Positions 2,568 to 14,666 of a stretch of 15,027 nt of DNA are shown one piece after another. How positions within the stretch are numbered: the first letter of the stretch is position 1; each line of letters opens with the position of its first letter. The notes beneath the pieces are model-generated. The model was not told the origin of the DNA. It searched no databases and worked only from the letters and a program-made list of their open reading frames with translations. The stretch spans positions 1-15,027 of the forward strand of contig CAZGJX010000100.1 in NCBI GenBank assembly GCA_964525635.1. The letters run 5' to 3'. A program made the position numbers and the translations under genes. The DNA is from an uncultured archaeon. Lineage in GTDB: Archaea > Asgardarchaeota > Lokiarchaeia > Sigyniarchaeales > SOKP01.

Positions 2568-4781
2568 ATGAATGAGAACATACAAAATAGAAGATTAATA
2601 ATTATATCAAATAGATTACCTGTTTCTGTATCTATTGAGAAGGATGAATTAGTATATAATAGAAGTCTTGGAGGTTTAGCCATAGGTCTTGATTCATTCC
2701 ATAAAAATCATAATAGTATATGGATAGGATGGCCGGGTATTACATCAGAATTAATTGAAAACCATAAAAAAAACATTAAAAATCATTTAATTAATATATT
2801 TGATTGTTATCCTATATTTCTTACTCAAGAAGAAAGAGAGAAATATTATGAAGGATTTTGTAATAAGACAGTTTGGCCTCTCTTTCATTATTTCAGAGAA
2901 AATAGCACATTTGATGATAATTTATGGAATGTATATAAAGATGTTAACAAAAAATTTTATGAAATAATCATAGAAGTTAGCAAACCAAATGATATCATAT
3001 GGATCCAAGATTATCATCTCATGTTATTACCTAAATTAATTAGAGATCATTTTCCAAATGCAACTATTGGTTTTTTTTTGCATATTCCTTTTCCTTCTTA
3101 TGAATTATTTAGATTATTACCATGGAGAGAGGATATCCTCAAAGGTCTATTGGGTTCTGATTTAATTGGATTTCATACATATGATTATGAAAGACATTTT
3201 TTAAGTAGTGTTCATAAATTATTACATCTTGATTATACCATGAATCAACTACTTTTTCAGGGAAGAACAATCAAAATTGATTGTTTTCCAATGGGTATTG
3301 ATTATGATAGGTATAATAACAAAGCTAAAGAGTCTGGAACGAAAAATGAATTAAAAAGAATACGTGAAGAAATAGGAGATAAAAAAGTAATTTTATCAGT
3401 AGATCGAATGGATTATACAAAAGGAATTTTACAAAGATTAGATGCTTATGAATGTTTTTTAAATACTTATCCTGAATATAGAGAAAAGATCATTTTGATT
3501 TTTATTATAGCACCCTCTCGCTCAAAAGTAGAAGAATATCAAGATTTAAAAAAAGAGATTGATGAAATAGTGGGTAAAATAAATGGAAAATTTGGTAAAA
3601 TCGAATGGAATCCAATACAATATATATATCGCCCACTAAATCTTGATCAACTAGTTGTTTTTTATTTAATTTCAGATATAATTCTTATCACTCCAATACG
3701 AGATGGTATGAATCTTATTGTAAAAGAATATATTGCTTCAAAAATAGACAATAAAGGAGTACTTATTTTAAGTGAAACTACTGGAGCAGCAAAACAACTA
3801 TATGAAGCAATTATTGTTAATACAAATAATAAGAAACAGATTATAGATGCAATAAAAGAAGCATTAGAGATGCCTGAAATAGAACAAATTGAAAGAATGA
3901 AAGCTATGAAAAAAAGAATTAAAAATTACAATGTAACTGAATGGGCAGAAGATATAATTGAAAGTCTGATTCAAGTAAAAACAATTCCACAAGATAAATC
4001 TTTACGATTTTTAACAACTCAAAAAAAAGAAGAATTAATTTTAAAGTATAAAAATAGTAATAAACGATTAATATTTTTAGATTATGATGGAACATTAATA
4101 AAATTCTACAGAAATCCTAAAAATGCGAAACCAAATGATAGAATTTTATCTATAGTAAAGGATCTTGTTTCTGATAGCAGTAATATAATTTTTATAATAA
4201 GTGGAAGAGATAAACAGACTCTTTCTAAATGGTTTAAGGGTATAAACATTAATTTAGTAGCTGAACATGGATTATGGACAAAAAATCATGATGATCAATG
4301 GAAGACAATAGAATATCTTAATAATAATTGGAAAGATCAAATAAGACCTGTGTTAAGGAGATATGTCAACAGAACACCAGGATCTTTTATAGAAGAAAAA
4401 GAATTCTGTTTAGTTTGGCATTATCGAAATGTAGAATCCGATTTATCTAATATTAGATCGAAGGAATTAGTCAATTTACTTGAAAATCTTACTTCTAATG
4501 AAGAATTAACAATTCTTGAAGGAAATAAAGTTGTAGAAATAAAGAATTCTGATATAAATAAAGGTAAAGCTATCTCTCGTATTATAACTAATAATGTCTC
4601 TGATTTTACTTTGATTATAGGAGATGATACTACTGATGAAGATATGTTTGAAGTGGGATTAACTATTGATAATGCTTTTTCAATAAAAGTGGGGTATGAT
4701 AGAACTAAAGCACATTATAATCTTTTTTCGGTAGATGAATGTCTTAAATTATTGGAAGATTTAAATTCAATTAATAAATAA
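2568..4781 (+). CDS. otsAB: bifunctional trehalose-6-phosphate synthase/phosphatase (GT20 + HAD fusion, OtsA-OtsB/TPSP)
   Basis: GT20 motifs SNRLP, GGLA, WIGWPG, WPLFHY, QDYHL, HIPFP, VDRMDYTKG and RDGMNL. HAD motifs FLDYDGTL, ISGR, AEHG, LVWHYR and IGDDTTDEDMF. Confidence 0.96.
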   Translation: MNENIQNRRLIIISNRLPVSVSIEKDELVYNRSLGGLAIGLDSFHKNHNSIWIGWPGITSELIENHKKNIKNHLINIFDCYPIFLTQEEREKYYEGFCNKTVWPLFHYFRENSTFDDNLWNVYKDVNKKFYEIIIEVSKPNDIIWIQDYHLMLLPKLIRDHFPNATIGFFLHIPFPSYELFRLLPWREDILKGLLGSDLIGFHTYDYERHFLSSVHKLLHLDYTMNQLLFQGRTIKIDCFPMGIDYDRYNNKAKESGTKNELKRIREEIGDKKVILSVDRMDYTKGILQRLDAYECFLNTYPEYREKIILIFIIAPSRSKVEEYQDLKKEIDEIVGKINGKFGKIEWNPIQYIYRPLNLDQLVVFYLISDIILITPIRDGMNLIVKEYIASKIDNKGVLILSETTGAAKQLYEAIIVNTNNKKQIIDAIKEALEMPEIEQIERMKAMKKRIKNYNVTEWAEDIIESLIQVKTIPQDKSLRFLTTQKKEELILKYKNSNKRLIFLDYDGTLIKFYRNPKNAKPNDRILSIVKDLVSDSSNIIFIISGRDKQTLSKWFKGININLVAEHGLWTKNHDDQWKTIEYLNNNWKDQIRPVLRRYVNRTPGSFIEEKEFCLVWHYRNVESDLSNIRSKELVNLLENLTSNEELTILEGNKVVEIKNSDINKGKAISRIITNNVSDFTLIIGDDTTDEDMFEVGLTIDNAFSIKVGYDRTKAHYNLFSVDECLKLLEDLNSINK

Positions 4782-4813: not shown

Positions 4814-6031
4814 TTGAGTATGATGGAGAGTTTATTAGATCAATTTTCTGAAATCATTGATTATCAATATATTCATGATTTATTTGAATTATCAAGACCT
4901 TTAACTCATAAAAAAATTGTTCATATCAATTCGACAATATATGGTGGAGGTGTTGCAGAAATTTTAAATGATTTAATTATTTTGATGAATGAACTTGGGA
5001 TCAAAACAGAATGGCACCAAATTAAAGGATCAATAGAATTTTTTCAAATAACTAAAAAAATTCATAATACTCTACAAGGAGCGAAAGAAGATTTAACAAA
5101 TCATGAAAAAAGAGTATATATAGATATGAATCGAAAGAATTCAGTTTATAATCATATTGACAATATTGATTGTATAATAATCCATGATCCACAGCCTTTA
5201 CCTATTATTAATTTCTATGAAAAACGTCAACCTTGGATTTGGAGATGTCATATAGATATAACTTCTAAATATCATCCTAATTGGGAATTTCTAAAATCAA
5301 TGCTTAACCTATATGATGGAATGATTGTTTCTATGGAAAAATATAAACAAGATATTAACCTTCCACAAGAAATTATAATGCCATCAATCAATCCTTTTAA
5401 TAATAAAAATAGATTGTTAGAAGAAAAAGAAATAGAAACAATACTAAAAGAATATGAGATTCCAATTGATAAACCGATTATATCTCAAGTCTCTCGGTTT
5501 GATAAATGGAAAGATCCTATTGGAGTTGTTAATGCTTTTAAAATAATTAGAAAAGAATTTGATTGTAGACTTGTTTTATTAGGAAATATGGCACAAGATG
5601 ATCCTGAAGGATTTGAAATTTACAATGAACTAATTCAAATTGTTGAAGATAATCCAGATATTCATATTATTACTGCCGAAAATAGTATATTAGTAAATGC
5701 ATTGCAAAGAGCTTCTGAAGTTGTAATACAAAAATCAATTAGAGAAGGTTTTGGATTAACAGTTACCGAAGCATTATGGAAAGAAACACCTGTAGTTGGT
5801 GGAAATGTTGGCGGAATTCCTCTTTAAATTATTGATGGAAAAACAGGATATTTAGTCAATAATATTGATGAATGTGCTAAACGAGTTCTAAAAATTTTAA
5901 GAAATCCGAATTTAGGTAAAAAATTAGGGAAAACTGGAAAAGAACATGTAAAAAAGAACTTCTTAATCATAAGACATCTTAAGGACTATATTAATTTACT
6001 AAAAAGATACATCATTCATTATAAAACTTAA
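4814..6031 (+). pseudogene. treT: TreT-like trehalose synthase (GT4 glycosyltransferase) with an in-frame TAA at 5825-5827
   Basis: Motifs HINSTIYGGGVAEIL, IHDPQP, WIWRCHID, QVSRFDKWKDP and QKSIREGFGLTVTEALWK. The same frame continues past the stop as GGIPL*IIDGKTGYLV...GKEHVKKNFLIIRHLKDY to TAA at 6029-6031, giving 405 codons. Confidence 0.88.
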
Positions 6032-7178: not shown

Positions 7179-7213
7179 TTATTTAAATCACCTTTTTTTT
7201 ATTTTTTAATCTA

Positions 7214-7378
7214 TTATACCAAATCAAGTAATTCTGATTTTAAAATTTCTTTTTCTTCCATAGTTAGTGAAAAAAAATGTTTTGTCTTTTCTCCTCTAAA
7301 TAATATTTTTTTTCCTTTTATGATAGGAATTGAATTTTCTAATTTTGCTCTATCTTCATTTATATCATTATCCTGCAT
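7214..7378 (-). CDS. small hypothetical protein, 54 aa (not in ORF track)
   Basis: MQDNDINEDRAKLENSIPIIKGKKILFRGEKTKHFFSLTMEEKEILKSELLDLV followed by TAA TAG. Strong SD GAGGTGA upstream and a second copy at the window start. Confidence 0.8.
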   Translation of the reverse strand: MQDNDINEDRAKLENSIPIIKGKKILFRGEKTKHFFSLTMEEKEILKSELLDLV

Positions 7379-9699: not shown

Positions 9700-10362
9700 T
9701 TAATCAATTTCAACTAATTCTGTTTTGTTTGCTTGATTTATAGCTTCTTTTAGTCTATGTTGCCAAGTATGTATCTTATCAATCTCATCAAAAACTTCCC
9801 GCTCATCAAAACCATAATCTGTATTTTCCTCAACGTTGTAGAAGTCAATGTATTCTTTTTCAATTTTATGGCCTTGTTCACTTAATGATTGTTTTGTTTT
9901 ATAAACAGGAAATATTGAACGCCATTTAAGGATTGTATTCGTGCTTTCTAACACCTCTACTCCTTTAGCTGCTCTAGGAATTGACTGAGAAGCCTCCTCT
10001 ACTTTAGGAGCAATGTCATTTTTTAATACAATTAACTCAGGGATAGTTAATTCTACCTCATCACCATTTAAATCAATTAATTTAGCCTTTGCTTTCTGAT
10101 TTGTCAAAGAAATTCTTAATGCAAGCTTCTTATCTTCATCAATTAATTCCTTGATTTTCTTTTGACATTCCTCAATAGTATAATTTCGCTCAAAATTTTT
10201 TTTTGATCCTAGAATTGGATCAAATTTTTTCTCTCCCTCAATTTCTTTTGTCTGATATTTTAGAGTCTCCCGTCCAGCAAGTTTTAAACGATTTATCCAA
10301 TTATTAAATTCATTCTCAATTTGTTTTCGACGAGAAAATCCATCTCCTAATGAAAATGTTAT
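9700..10362 (-). CDS. DIP1984-like long helical/coiled-coil protein, 220 aa, ATA start
   Basis: The frame is open for 85 codons upstream of the listed TTG at 10107, back to TGA at 10369-10371. GAGGTG (10375-10370) lies 7 nt before ATA. Motifs LGDGFSRRKQI, LALRISLTNQKA, LTIPELIVLK and EID..LKEAINQANKTELVE parallel the DIP1984-family pattern as I recall it. Confidence 0.8.
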   Translation of the reverse strand: MTFSLGDGFSRRKQIENEFNNWINRLKLAGRETLKYQTKEIEGEKKFDPILGSKKNFERNYTIEECQKKIKELIDEDKKLALRISLTNQKAKAKLIDLNGDEVELTIPELIVLKNDIAPKVEEASQSIPRAAKGVEVLESTNTILKWRSIFPVYKTKQSLSEQGHKIEKEYIDFYNVEENTDYGFDEREVFDEIDKIHTWQHRLKEAINQANKTELVEID

Positions 10363-10383
10363 TCTTCTTCACCTCTTTTATAT

Positions 10384-10583
10384 ATGGGTGTCAGTGAGGT
10401 CCTCATGGCAAGTAAGAGCCATTGGATGATTTTAAATATATCTCTTTATAAAAATTACTTTTTAATCTATACCTAATCAGGTCTACGTCAAAAGCATGAC
10501 TGATGCTTAGGTCGACTGCCTAAAGTTTTTTAACAGATATTTATCAGTTTTACATCTTACTATTCGATCCGCACTGACAACAT
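10384..10583 (-). ncRNA. putative ~200-nt structured ncRNA or 5' leader of unknown family
   Basis: Nested complementarity at 10389-10396/10572-10579 (8 bp), 10411-10417/10555-10561 (7 bp), 10438-10443/10535-10540 and 10457-10461/10522-10526. Hairpins at 10405-10422, 10471-10482, 10492-10508 and 10508-10522. Locally GC-enriched, and it begins at the expected distance from a TATA box. Confidence 0.72.
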
Positions 10584-10599
10584 TAATAATATTTTCCTA

Positions 10600-10614
10600 T
10601 ATTTAAATCTTGCG
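10600..10614 (-). promoter_or_regulatory. archaeal BRE/TATA promoter for the ncRNA-DIP1984-like unit
   Basis: The minus strand reads CGCAAGA-TTTAAATA. The TATA box (10607-10600) starts about 24-28 nt before the 5' end of the closing stem. Confidence 0.6.
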
Positions 10615-10621
10615 AATTAAA

Positions 10622-10656
10622 TGGGATTAAATTGGGAATTGGGATAAAAATGGGAA
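10622..10656. promoter_or_regulatory. tandem operator-like repeat (4x TGGGA; two 17-mers at 18-bp period)
   Basis: TGGGATTAAATTGGGAA (10622-10638) and TGGGATAAAAATGGGAA (10640-10656) are 15/17 identical and lie immediately upstream of the BRE. Confidence 0.65.
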
Positions 10657-10838
10657 AAATCTAAGAATATCCTTCAATCTATTAATAATATAATTATAAT
10701 AATTAGCTTTTTTTTAATATAAGTGAGTATCTCAAAAATGCTAAAAATGAGGATTATAGGTCCCTAACCACTATTTATCCTTACATACTTAAATAGTATT
10801 AATCTCTTATATTATTTAATAATTTTTAAGGTGATATT

Positions 10839-12765: not shown

Positions 12766-14666
12766 TTAAGGGGATATTATTATCTCAACATTTTTCTTTT
12801 TCAAGCATTCTATAGTAGATTTCGTTGTTGAATTTAGGTTTTTTAACAATGGATTACCATCTAGACTAATTCTTCTGAGATTTTTTAACTTTCCTATTGC
12901 TTCTGGAAGTTCTGTTAGTTGATTATTACTTATATTAAAATACTCAAGGTTCCTCAATCTCCCTATTGATTCTGGAAGTCCAGTTATTTGATTATTACTT
13001 AAATAAAGCTCTTGAAGTGATATTAAGTTTCCAAATGTTTCTGGAAGCACTGTAATTTTGTTATCACTTATGTCAAAATATCTGAGGTTTTTTAAGTCTC
13101 CAAAAGTTTTTGGAAGTTTTTAATTAGATTATTGCTTAAATAAACATCCTTAAGAAATGCTAGTTTTCCTAGTGTTTCTGGAAGTACCGTTAATTTATTA
13201 CTAGATAAATAAAGTAATTGAAGTGCTGTTAATTTTTCTATAGATTTTGGAAGTTCTGTAATTTGATTTTCTTCTAAAAAAAGTTTTTTAAGTGAAGATA
13301 ATTTTTCTAATGTGTTTGGAAATTCGATTAATTGATTGCCACTTAAACCAAGTATTATAAGTGATGTTAAATTTTCTAGGTATTTTGGAAGTTCTGCTAA
13401 TCTATTACTATCTAAATGAAGCATTTGAAGTAATGTTAGTTTTCCTATTGTTTCTGGGAGCTCTCCTAACTTATTATTACTCAAATCAAAAATCCTAAGG
13501 TTTGTCAAGTTTCTAACTGATTCTGGTAAAGTTAATAACTTATTTTTCCCCAAATCCAATTGTTTAAGATTTTTTAAGTTTCCTATTGTGTCTGGCAAGG
13601 TTAATAACTTATTATTCCCCAAATCTAATTGTATGAGGCTTTTTAAATTCCCTATTGCTTCTGGAAGTTCTTTTATTTTATTGTCATACAAATTAATTCT
13701 TTGAAGTGATTTTAATTCTCCAATTTCTTCTGGAATTAATGTCAATTGATTTTCTTCTAAAAACAATTTTCTAAGAAAAGATAAATCCCCTATTGTGTTA
13801 GGAAGTTTTGTTATTTTATTGTCTCCTAATTGAAGTTTTTGTAGTGAAGTCAATTTTCCTATTGTTTTAGGAAGTTCTGTTAGTTGATTTCTATTTAAAT
13901 AAAGCTTTTGAAGTAATGACAAATTACCTATTGCTTCTGGAAGATTGATTATTTGATTATAAAATAAATTAAATATTTTAAGCGATGTTAGCCTTCCTAT
14001 TATTTCTGGAACTTCAATTAGGTTTGACCTAGATAAATCAAGTCTATTTATATTTAATTTATAGACTATATCTCTTGCTATTTGATCTCCTAAATCTACT
14101 AATTTTAGTAATATAAAATAAGACATATCTCTCGATTCATCATCTATATTTTCAAGCTGGTGCTTCAATTTTGGATTTTTATCAAGAAAGATAAAGTCAA
14201 TCTCATTGTTATCAAGATATTTGAGATATTTTTCTTGAATAAAAAAAAAGAGACAGGGTATATGTCCATAATGAAATTGTTTTACAATCTCTTCTTTAAA
14301 TACTTTTTTAGCAAGCGGATCTCCTATTTCAGCTAATTTTTTAAGGAGGGGAAATGAAAGATTTGAATGAAGTAATTTTGTATTATATTTCTGTTCATAC
14401 CATATTTGAAGATTAGAACAATGGCCCCAAAATTCAGTCTTAGGAGGGATTATAACATCTGAATTTACTGGCTGTTCTAATGAAGCATTTAATCTCTTGA
14501 CAATTTCATCAATTGAATCTGAATCATTGATAACTTTTAATTCTTTAATAAGGATTTCCAACAATAAAAATTTACATTGATTAAATCGCTTTCCGTTTAC
14601 ATAAATGATTGTTGAATTGTTTTCTAATCTTAAAGAAAGGTGTTTATTTACATAAAATTCTTTCAT
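12766..14666 (-). pseudogene. leucine-rich repeat protein (Lokiarchaeia-type N-terminal domain + 18 LRRs of 23 aa), split by a 1-nt frameshift at 13117-13121
   Basis: N-domain EFYVNKHLSLRLEN...QCKFLLL...EFWGHCSNLQ...LLHSNLSFPLLKKLAEIGDPLAKKVFKEEI. Adding one A to ATT-AAAAA-CTT-CCA joins the two listed ORFs with perfect LRR register (NNLIKKLPKTFGDLKNLRYFDISDNKITVLPETFG), giving 633 aa. Confidence 0.9.

Follow-up and report, generated by a model that had tools for sequence, protein, structure and literature searches.

A Structured RNA beside a DIP1984-Like Gene

The window analyzed here is a stretch of 15,027 nucleotides (nt) of DNA from an uncultured archaeon of the Asgardarchaeota (Lokiarchaeia; Sigyniarchaeales) and corresponds to contig C100 of a 4.45-Mb genome. 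Close relatives of its proteins bear the names Promethearchaeota or Lokiarchaeota, which identifies the source as an Asgard archaeon. An intergenic stretch of its minus strand holds a noncoding RNA (ncRNA) of ∼190 nt (10389–10578), delimited by folding, alignments of homologs, and a contig from RNA sequencing that spans 10390–10566. Beyond its 3′ end, on the same strand, is a gene (9700–10362) for a helical protein of 220 amino acids (aa) that resembles DUF7873 and DUF6847 (DIP1984), hereafter the partner protein. An initial annotation, made from the letters of the window, had proposed a structured RNA at this locus, and every complementary segment that it named was found where it had been placed.

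Homologs provide most of the evidence that follows. A search with the partner protein yielded 220 relatives, with loci from genomes, metagenomes, and one viral contig. Whether a metagenomic locus is called Asgard or bacterial depends here on base composition and on the identity of its protein to named records, rather than on a record name. Copies of the RNA were located with a sequence-only model; diverged copies at loci L051 and L041 were missed by the model and found by nhmmer. The main alignment comprises 29 distinct Asgard-type copies in which the RNA is 5′ of the gene (the Asgard copies below), and a second alignment mixes archaeal and bacterial copies.

On the minus strand, the locus begins with an archaeal TATA box (TTTAAATA; 10600–10607). 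In 11 of 29 Asgard copies, a strict TATA precedes the AYCRAA motif by 39–41 nt, and positions −38, −37, and −35 are without G or C in 28. Because the box lies at a fixed distance in these copies, transcription is predicted to start at or near G10578, the first base of the closing stem P1. Several TTCCCA(A/T)T-like direct repeats just 5′ of the box (10620–10660), common to three same-genus relatives, are possible transcription-factor sites. The 5′ strand of P1 (10569–10579) pairs with a 3′ strand placed by alignment (10389–10399), with one C·U mismatch. It is followed by a conserved junction motif, AUCGAAU (10562–10568; family form NYCRAAK, with two invariant A), whose sequence resembles a T-loop, and by the 5′ strand of a pseudoknot, AGUAAGA (10555–10561), recovered in both alignments. 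The middle of the RNA has a predicted single-stranded tract of about six GYA or GYC units at a 7-nt period that ends in a conserved GYCYAYC box (tract 1; 10514–10553), a hairpin, (A)AGCAU-CAGUC-AUGCU(U) (10492–10508), whose loop has a near-invariant G at 10500, and a second single-stranded tract that begins with CGUA and is decayed in the window copy (tract 2; 10425–10486). A 3′ hairpin, AUGGC-UCUUACUU-GCCAU (10405–10422), has two invariant G-C pairs and presents the 3′ strand of the pseudoknot in its loop (10417–10411).

Two features are directly downstream of the structure. In Lokiarchaeal homologs, P1 is often immediately followed by ACC(A/C/U), like the acceptor end of a tRNA (10385–10388 in the window; ACCA in L014 and L072, UCCA in L029); bacterial copies are without such an end. 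This end may direct 3′ processing. A Shine-Dalgarno-like GAGGTGA (10369–10375), recognized by sequence, precedes the partner gene.

Folding and Covariation

In the window, the folding z-score is −2.46 for the minus strand (3 of 200 shuffles were as good) and −1.39 for the plus strand, and the family median is approximately −3.3 (27 copies). Ensemble pair probabilities are 0.98 for P1, its GG/CC extension, and the 3′ hairpin, ∼0.4 for an AU-rich arm drawn by the initial annotation, and 0.18–0.26 for the hairpins placed at its head. An AUG/CAU extension of P1, also in that drawing, has a probability of 0.23 and is unsupported.

Across the Asgard copies, the whole structure has 215 double-change cells compared to 76 ± 7 in shuffles, far above slid controls, and 79% of cells are paired compared to 59% in shuffles and 31–47% in slid controls; the copies are related sequences, so the significance of these counts, and of the period counts given below, is overstated. 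P1, including GG/CC, is paired in 75–91% of cells and has double changes at 11 of 11 pairs. The 3′ hairpin is paired in 97% of cells and the AGCAU/AUGCU hairpin in 76%. The pseudoknot AGUAAG/CUUACU is paired in 80%, with 6–15 double changes at each of its six core pairs, and in the closest relative, L112, it is replaced by AGUGGG/CCUACU; a seventh pair, the A/U first proposed, is not conserved. P1, the pseudoknot, and the middle and 3′ hairpins also hold in the mixed alignment, and the four are kept across 54 homologous copies. Taken with the folding scores, this comparative evidence indicates that the RNA is real and structured beyond background, as was first suspected.

The complementarity of AGUAAGA and UCUUACU had been interpreted as either a pseudoknot or two exclusive folds. 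The pseudoknot and the 3′ hairpin share no bases and both are intact in 25 of 29 copies; known kissing loops have this geometry of six pairs within eight loop bases. Since the pseudoknot pairs only loop bases and coexists with the hairpin, we interpret it as a pseudoknot rather than a switch. The modest z-score of the window and a middle region that folds many ways would be compatible with a conformational switch between exclusive folds, or with a chance fold in AT-rich DNA, but compensatory changes across archaea and bacteria and the coexistence of pseudoknot and hairpin make these explanations most improbable.

The middle of the RNA differs from how it was first drawn. The long AU arm, together with the hairpin ACCU-GAUU-AGGU, is paired in 41.0% of cells compared to 39.4% in shuffles, the same as slid controls, and when treated as a duplex between the two tracts, the arm has a z-score of −0.1 in the window and a family median of 0.2. 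Of the three hairpins proposed for the head, AGCAU/AUGCU is retained, but the other two are not conserved (UAGG/CCUA is weak, paired in 52% of Asgard cells and 43% in the mixed set). Of the two CAGUC words described as shared loops, one is the final unit of tract 1 and the other is the middle-hairpin loop. Both places have a near-invariant G within NNGYC, and this G is the conserved letter, but the full CAGUC match is peculiar to the window copy, and in most homologs the first of these G belongs to the single-stranded repeat tract.

Rfam 15 has no match in the element at E-values up to 5 and none at E-values up to 1 in eight homologous loci, and scans for tRNAs and tmRNAs found nothing. A literature search, which was without most subscription papers, turned up neither an account of the RNA nor any RNA that partners DIP1984. 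With neither an Rfam family nor a paper found, the RNA is uncatalogued. Its invariant unpaired bases cluster in junctions (the two A after P1, the loop G, and the first G of each tract) and two G-C pairs are invariant, as might be the case if P1, the junction motif, and the pseudoknot formed an active ribozyme or a small-molecule aptamer, with the protein carrying or chaperoning the RNA. However, the invariant bases are few for a catalytic core, most of the length is periodic single strand, and there is no resemblance to any Rfam ribozyme or riboswitch. We consider a catalytic or ligand-binding core very unlikely.

Location and Orientation Relative to the Partner Gene

The RNA adjoins the gene in three arrangements. 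It is upstream in 29 Asgard loci, and one Asgard locus has two tandem copies. In another 15 loci (13 bacterial, one Asgard, and one viral), it is downstream of the gene and shares its strand, and in nine bacterial loci the RNA is downstream on the opposite strand. Three loci outside of the model set (L105, L108, and L109) also carry it. Inspection by eye of the opposite-strand copies revealed a TAnnnT hexamer 5–8 nt before P1 in seven of nine and pyrimidine or U tails behind the RNA in most. The strand of these copies was set by motif order, the GYA period, and promoter signals; counts of G-U versus A-C left the strand undecided, with the alignment off by one. Because in bacteria the RNA can be downstream and even antisense with its own promoter, these arrangements lead us to conclude that it is a stand-alone ncRNA.

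In Asgard upstream copies, the RNA is at the predicted 5′ end of the transcript, 8–48 nt before the start codon, and in the window no U-rich terminator is present between RNA and gene. Both observations are in line with a cis-acting autoregulatory leader, in which the protein would block translation or transcription by binding the repeats of the mRNA that encodes it, in the manner of TRAP and HutP on target leaders. The HutP site also shares a 7-nt triplet period in two tracts (PMC2425495). But 24 copies are downstream of the gene, nine of which are on the opposite strand, and a cis-acting leader cannot explain these positions. Moreover, the ribosome-binding site is outside of the structure (the Shine-Dalgarno-like word is 14 nt past P1) and no alternative helix overlaps it. 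Riboswitches and cis-acting leaders differ from this RNA in the same respects: it is not always 5′ on the same strand, it has no exclusive helices over a terminator or ribosome-binding site, and no terminator was found there. As the account of the family, a leader is quite unlikely, although it could be a second role in Asgard archaea.

A 177-nt contig from one sediment RNA library matches 10390–10566 with one letter different and leaves the gene uncovered; it comes from a single run, at depth 3, and lack of cover of the gene in such a run is not evidence of absence. The contig hints at a discrete, stable RNA.

Across the family, the RNA adjoins the gene in every genome with an assembled upstream flank. 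The gene itself is patchy: among 400 genomes of the phylum, 18 have it, including two with weak or partial matches. In genome G016, a frameshifted gene is paired with an RNA changed in P1 and the first GYA. Orphan copies of the RNA at the proA locus of genomes G022–G025, with no partner gene adjoining, have lost invariant G-C pairs or are cut short. Loci L097, L098, L099, and L103 are such decayed orphans beside proA in one genus, and G024 holds both an orphan and an intact gene-linked copy. A search of the window's own genome found no second copy, and low-scoring hits of the model in G003, G060, and G129 appear to be chance matches. At L110 and L111, which have a distant gene, the RNA had no match within the short flanks.

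Neighboring genes are not conserved. No recurrent neighbor, such as RtcB or Ro60, was found across 50 loci, and Ro60 was not searched genome-wide. With regard to Y RNA, the usual partner of Ro60, the RNA has no Rfam match. On a single short contig (L106:87–884), which may be a chimera, an N-terminal piece of RtcB is joined to the C-terminal 160 residues of the partner protein. On the viral contig (L041/L104), a tRNA-like element is ∼240 nt upstream of the gene, with further odd tRNA-like calls at a relaxed threshold.

Heptad GYA Repeats

The region drawn as an arm has, in the family, two unpaired tracts, each constant in length, with a GYA every 7 nt, of about six and eight units, and one hairpin between them. 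Among 22 bacterial copies, there are 101, 70, 43, and 31 pairs of GYA at spacings of 7, 14, 21, and 28 nt, respectively (z of ∼37, 27, 16, and 12 relative to dinucleotide shuffles). The period is weaker in Asgard copies (26 pairs at a spacing of 7; z of ∼10). The median period score is 7 in the RNAs and at most 3 in 752 flanking windows. The length of tract 1 is fixed, with 35–39 nt from first to last G in every aligned copy (36–39 nt in the 29 Asgard copies), even when the letters have decayed, and its end units keep their G in Asgard copies. Tract 2 has about eight GYA units in bacterial copies and optional looped-out hairpins in others, with the register unbroken. In the window copy, only end units are clear (G10553, G10516, and G10486) and the inner units of tract 1 are decayed. 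The initial annotation had suspected repeated protein-binding sites in this region, and two tracts with a 7-nt GYA period are candidates for such sites.

Periodic triplets have precedents. TRAP recognizes the trp leader in this manner, with fixed-period triplets read by a protein oligomer. Likewise, the hut terminator RNA of Bacillus subtilis presents XAG and a four-base spacer, hence a 7-nt period, in two tracts on two faces of the HutP hexamer (PMC2425495). The RNA described here is similar in having periodic single-stranded triplets, with the same 7-nt period as HutP, although faint in the window copy, and by analogy its triplets would also be bound by an oligomer. In contrast to these systems, its triplet is GYA, it has ∼14 units, and its tracts are within a pseudoknotted clasp. 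It is not a terminator leader and can be downstream or antisense, and its partner protein matches neither HutP nor TRAP by profile (Pfam and NCBIfam) or by fold. Decoy RNAs such as CsrB and RsmZ are also stand-alone and have many short repeated sites for one protein. The sites in CsrB are GGA motifs carried by hairpin loops; they follow no strict period, and a pseudoknot is absent. Its protein, CsrA, is a small dimer, and the RNA and protein genes have no fixed linkage. The likeness is in a stand-alone RNA with many short repeated candidate sites, but here the repeats are GYA in unpaired tracts, not GGA in loops, and the RNA gene is linked to the protein gene.

The Partner Protein

The frame of the partner gene has 220 codons (10362–9700). 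Because its first codon is ATA (ATG in most relatives), gene callers report no more than the final 135 aa. Around this start (10362–10372, minus strand), a GTG within the Shine-Dalgarno-like word is one base out of frame, and L112 has an in-frame GTG three codons upstream. The ATA is a non-standard start, decay, or an assembly error.

The structure model is confident (predicted local distance difference test [pLDDT] of 88.5). Its best structural match is 3KDQ (DIP1984), with Z of 11.1 and a root-mean-square deviation of 6.2 over 150 aligned residues, and 3KDQ is also the top match in Foldseek (E of 0.006). A Z of 11.1 can be reached by helical arrangement alone; here, the match extends along the full chain and is in accord with weak profile matches (DUF6847, E of 0.007; DUF7873, above cut-off in three bacterial relatives). 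Judging from the model, the partner protein has the DIP1984 fold. Relative to DIP1984/DUF6847 and DUF7873, it thus shares the overall fold but has 220 rather than ∼150 aa, with a long beta-hairpin insertion, and is below family cut-offs (NF038048, 17.6 vs. 70 bits; PF20935, 16.8 vs. 27 bits). The literature yielded no function and no RNA partner for DIP1984/DUF6847 or DUF7873, and sequence searches of the PDB and of annotated phages returned nothing useful.

Modeling of four copies of the protein gave a score of 0.62 compared to 0.16 for the best control, with 88% contact agreement between runs and pLDDT of at least 83; 20 of 30 solved homo-pairs attain the mark used for self-association, as does 1 of 23 single chains. 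The predicted association may reflect likeness to 3KDQ. Invariant residues are of the Arg, Lys, Trp, and Tyr types (R12, K13, W22, R25, R59, Y61, R148, and R188), identity is 41–50% across domains, and a BLAST comparison for an internal two-fold repeat gave E of 0.03.

Another member of the superfamily also adjoins an RNA. In locus L107 (1250–1500, minus strand; contig C20 of genome G000), an ordinary 152-aa DUF6847/DIP1984 gene (30623–31036) is directly followed by a different structured RNA of ∼220 nt. This RNA has a tRNA-like arm (GGUUCGACUCC) and a z-score of −2.79, and matches neither Rfam nor the model of the RNA described here. A DIP1984 gene with an RNA of its own suggests wider pairing with RNAs across the superfamily.

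A Candidate Ribonucleoprotein

We consider it probable that the RNA forms a particle with the adjoining protein in which a protein oligomer binds the heptad repeats. Comparison among homologs shows the clasp, the two unpaired periodic tracts, the linkage of RNA and gene in three orientations, and separate promoters. P1 joins the ends of the RNA, and the pseudoknot closes the clasp by docking the 5′ segment on the 3′-hairpin loop. The protein would self-assemble into an oligomer, probably a ring. Each repeated surface of the protein would read one GYA unit such that the RNA wraps the oligomer in the way that hut RNA wraps HutP, with tract 1 providing about six sites and tract 2 about eight. In the weakest step, which is a guess, the RNA would hold the oligomer at a set size or inactive, as a decoy or antitoxin does, and the pair would make up an accessory module of two parts. 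The RNA of Asgard archaea would be the 5′ end of the gene transcript, probably cut out or ending early, and may also repress translation of the gene.

Several observations weigh against a particle of this kind. The contact between RNA and protein is proposed from analogy, and the putative ring extends beyond a folding analysis that covered four copies. With 37 K+R and 42 D+E, the protein has a net acidic character, and another host protein could read the repeats. The period score of the window copy is 3, inside the background tail of its genome, and the period is barely visible. Given the faint period and the lack of a standard in-frame start, the window copy may be decaying or mis-assembled. 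Because the protein has no toxin, nuclease, or defense signature and neighbors are not conserved, the purpose of a particle is a guess.

Type III toxin–antitoxin systems (ToxIN, CptIN, and TenpIN) are patchy two-part modules in which a pseudoknotted RNA is encoded beside one protein gene, and the RNA and partner gene are similar in each of these features. A type III-like pair of RNA antitoxin and protein toxin, or an anti-virus module, where the RNA neutralizes a harmful oligomer until its supply fails, would be a specific version of the proposed particle. It would account for a self-contained two-part module, a patchy range (18 of 400 genomes), a copy on a viral contig, and joint decay of gene and RNA. 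However, each 190-nt RNA has one pseudoknot, with no tandem array of pseudoknot repeats or direct repeat of that kind, and in the window there is no terminator between RNA and gene, whose relative orientation is free in the family. The protein is not of the ToxN, CptN, or TenpN type by profile or fold, and has no toxin, nuclease, or defense match in PADLOC, PHROG, Pfam, or NCBIfam. Its neighbors are housekeeping genes rather than defense islands. Lastly, conflict effectors are not usually highly conserved across domains, and the degree of identity of the partner protein is unusual for them. An antitoxin or anti-virus role is therefore unlikely.

Other Features of the Window

Two other genes in the window are broken. 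A glycosyltransferase gene (4814–5827, plus strand) has an in-frame TAA with the frame continuing beyond it; it is TreT-like by context, being located behind a trehalose-phosphate synthase/phosphatase-like gene (2568–4781). A leucine-rich-repeat gene with 69-nt units (12766–14666, minus strand) is split by a frameshift near 13090. Together with the decayed repeats and the ATA, the two broken genes suggest that the window copy of the RNA and its gene may be degenerating or carry assembly errors.

The window also has repeated sequences. Positions 1–100 and 7184–7281 hold an inverted copy of ∼98 nt that is 92% alike, and a 212-nt stretch from 7189 recurs on contig C39 at 95%; these are perhaps a small mobile element. 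A 222-nt tandem duplication (91%) is located at 405–848, within a frame at 390–1316.

Implications for Asgard Archaea and the DIP1984 Superfamily

We tentatively suggest, as a proposal whose chances fall a little short of even, that the RNA and its partner represent a ribonucleoprotein class that is new and common to Asgard archaea, bacteria, and viruses, in which the ∼14 heptad GYA units of an RNA loop clasped by a pseudoknot wrap, and perhaps size, a ring of DIP1984-fold subunits. The system lends itself to a sharp test, since its triplet code can be altered by mutation and its parts are one small protein and one 190-nt RNA. Few large structured RNAs have a partner protein of their own, and hardly any such RNA is known from Asgard archaea. 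If the proposal is true, a protein ring may here be templated or restrained by an RNA. The proposal would give a first function to the DIP1984/DUF7873 superfamily, for which a structure, but no function, has been available since 2009, and members of the wider superfamily would be RNA-binding ring proteins, each with its own ncRNA.
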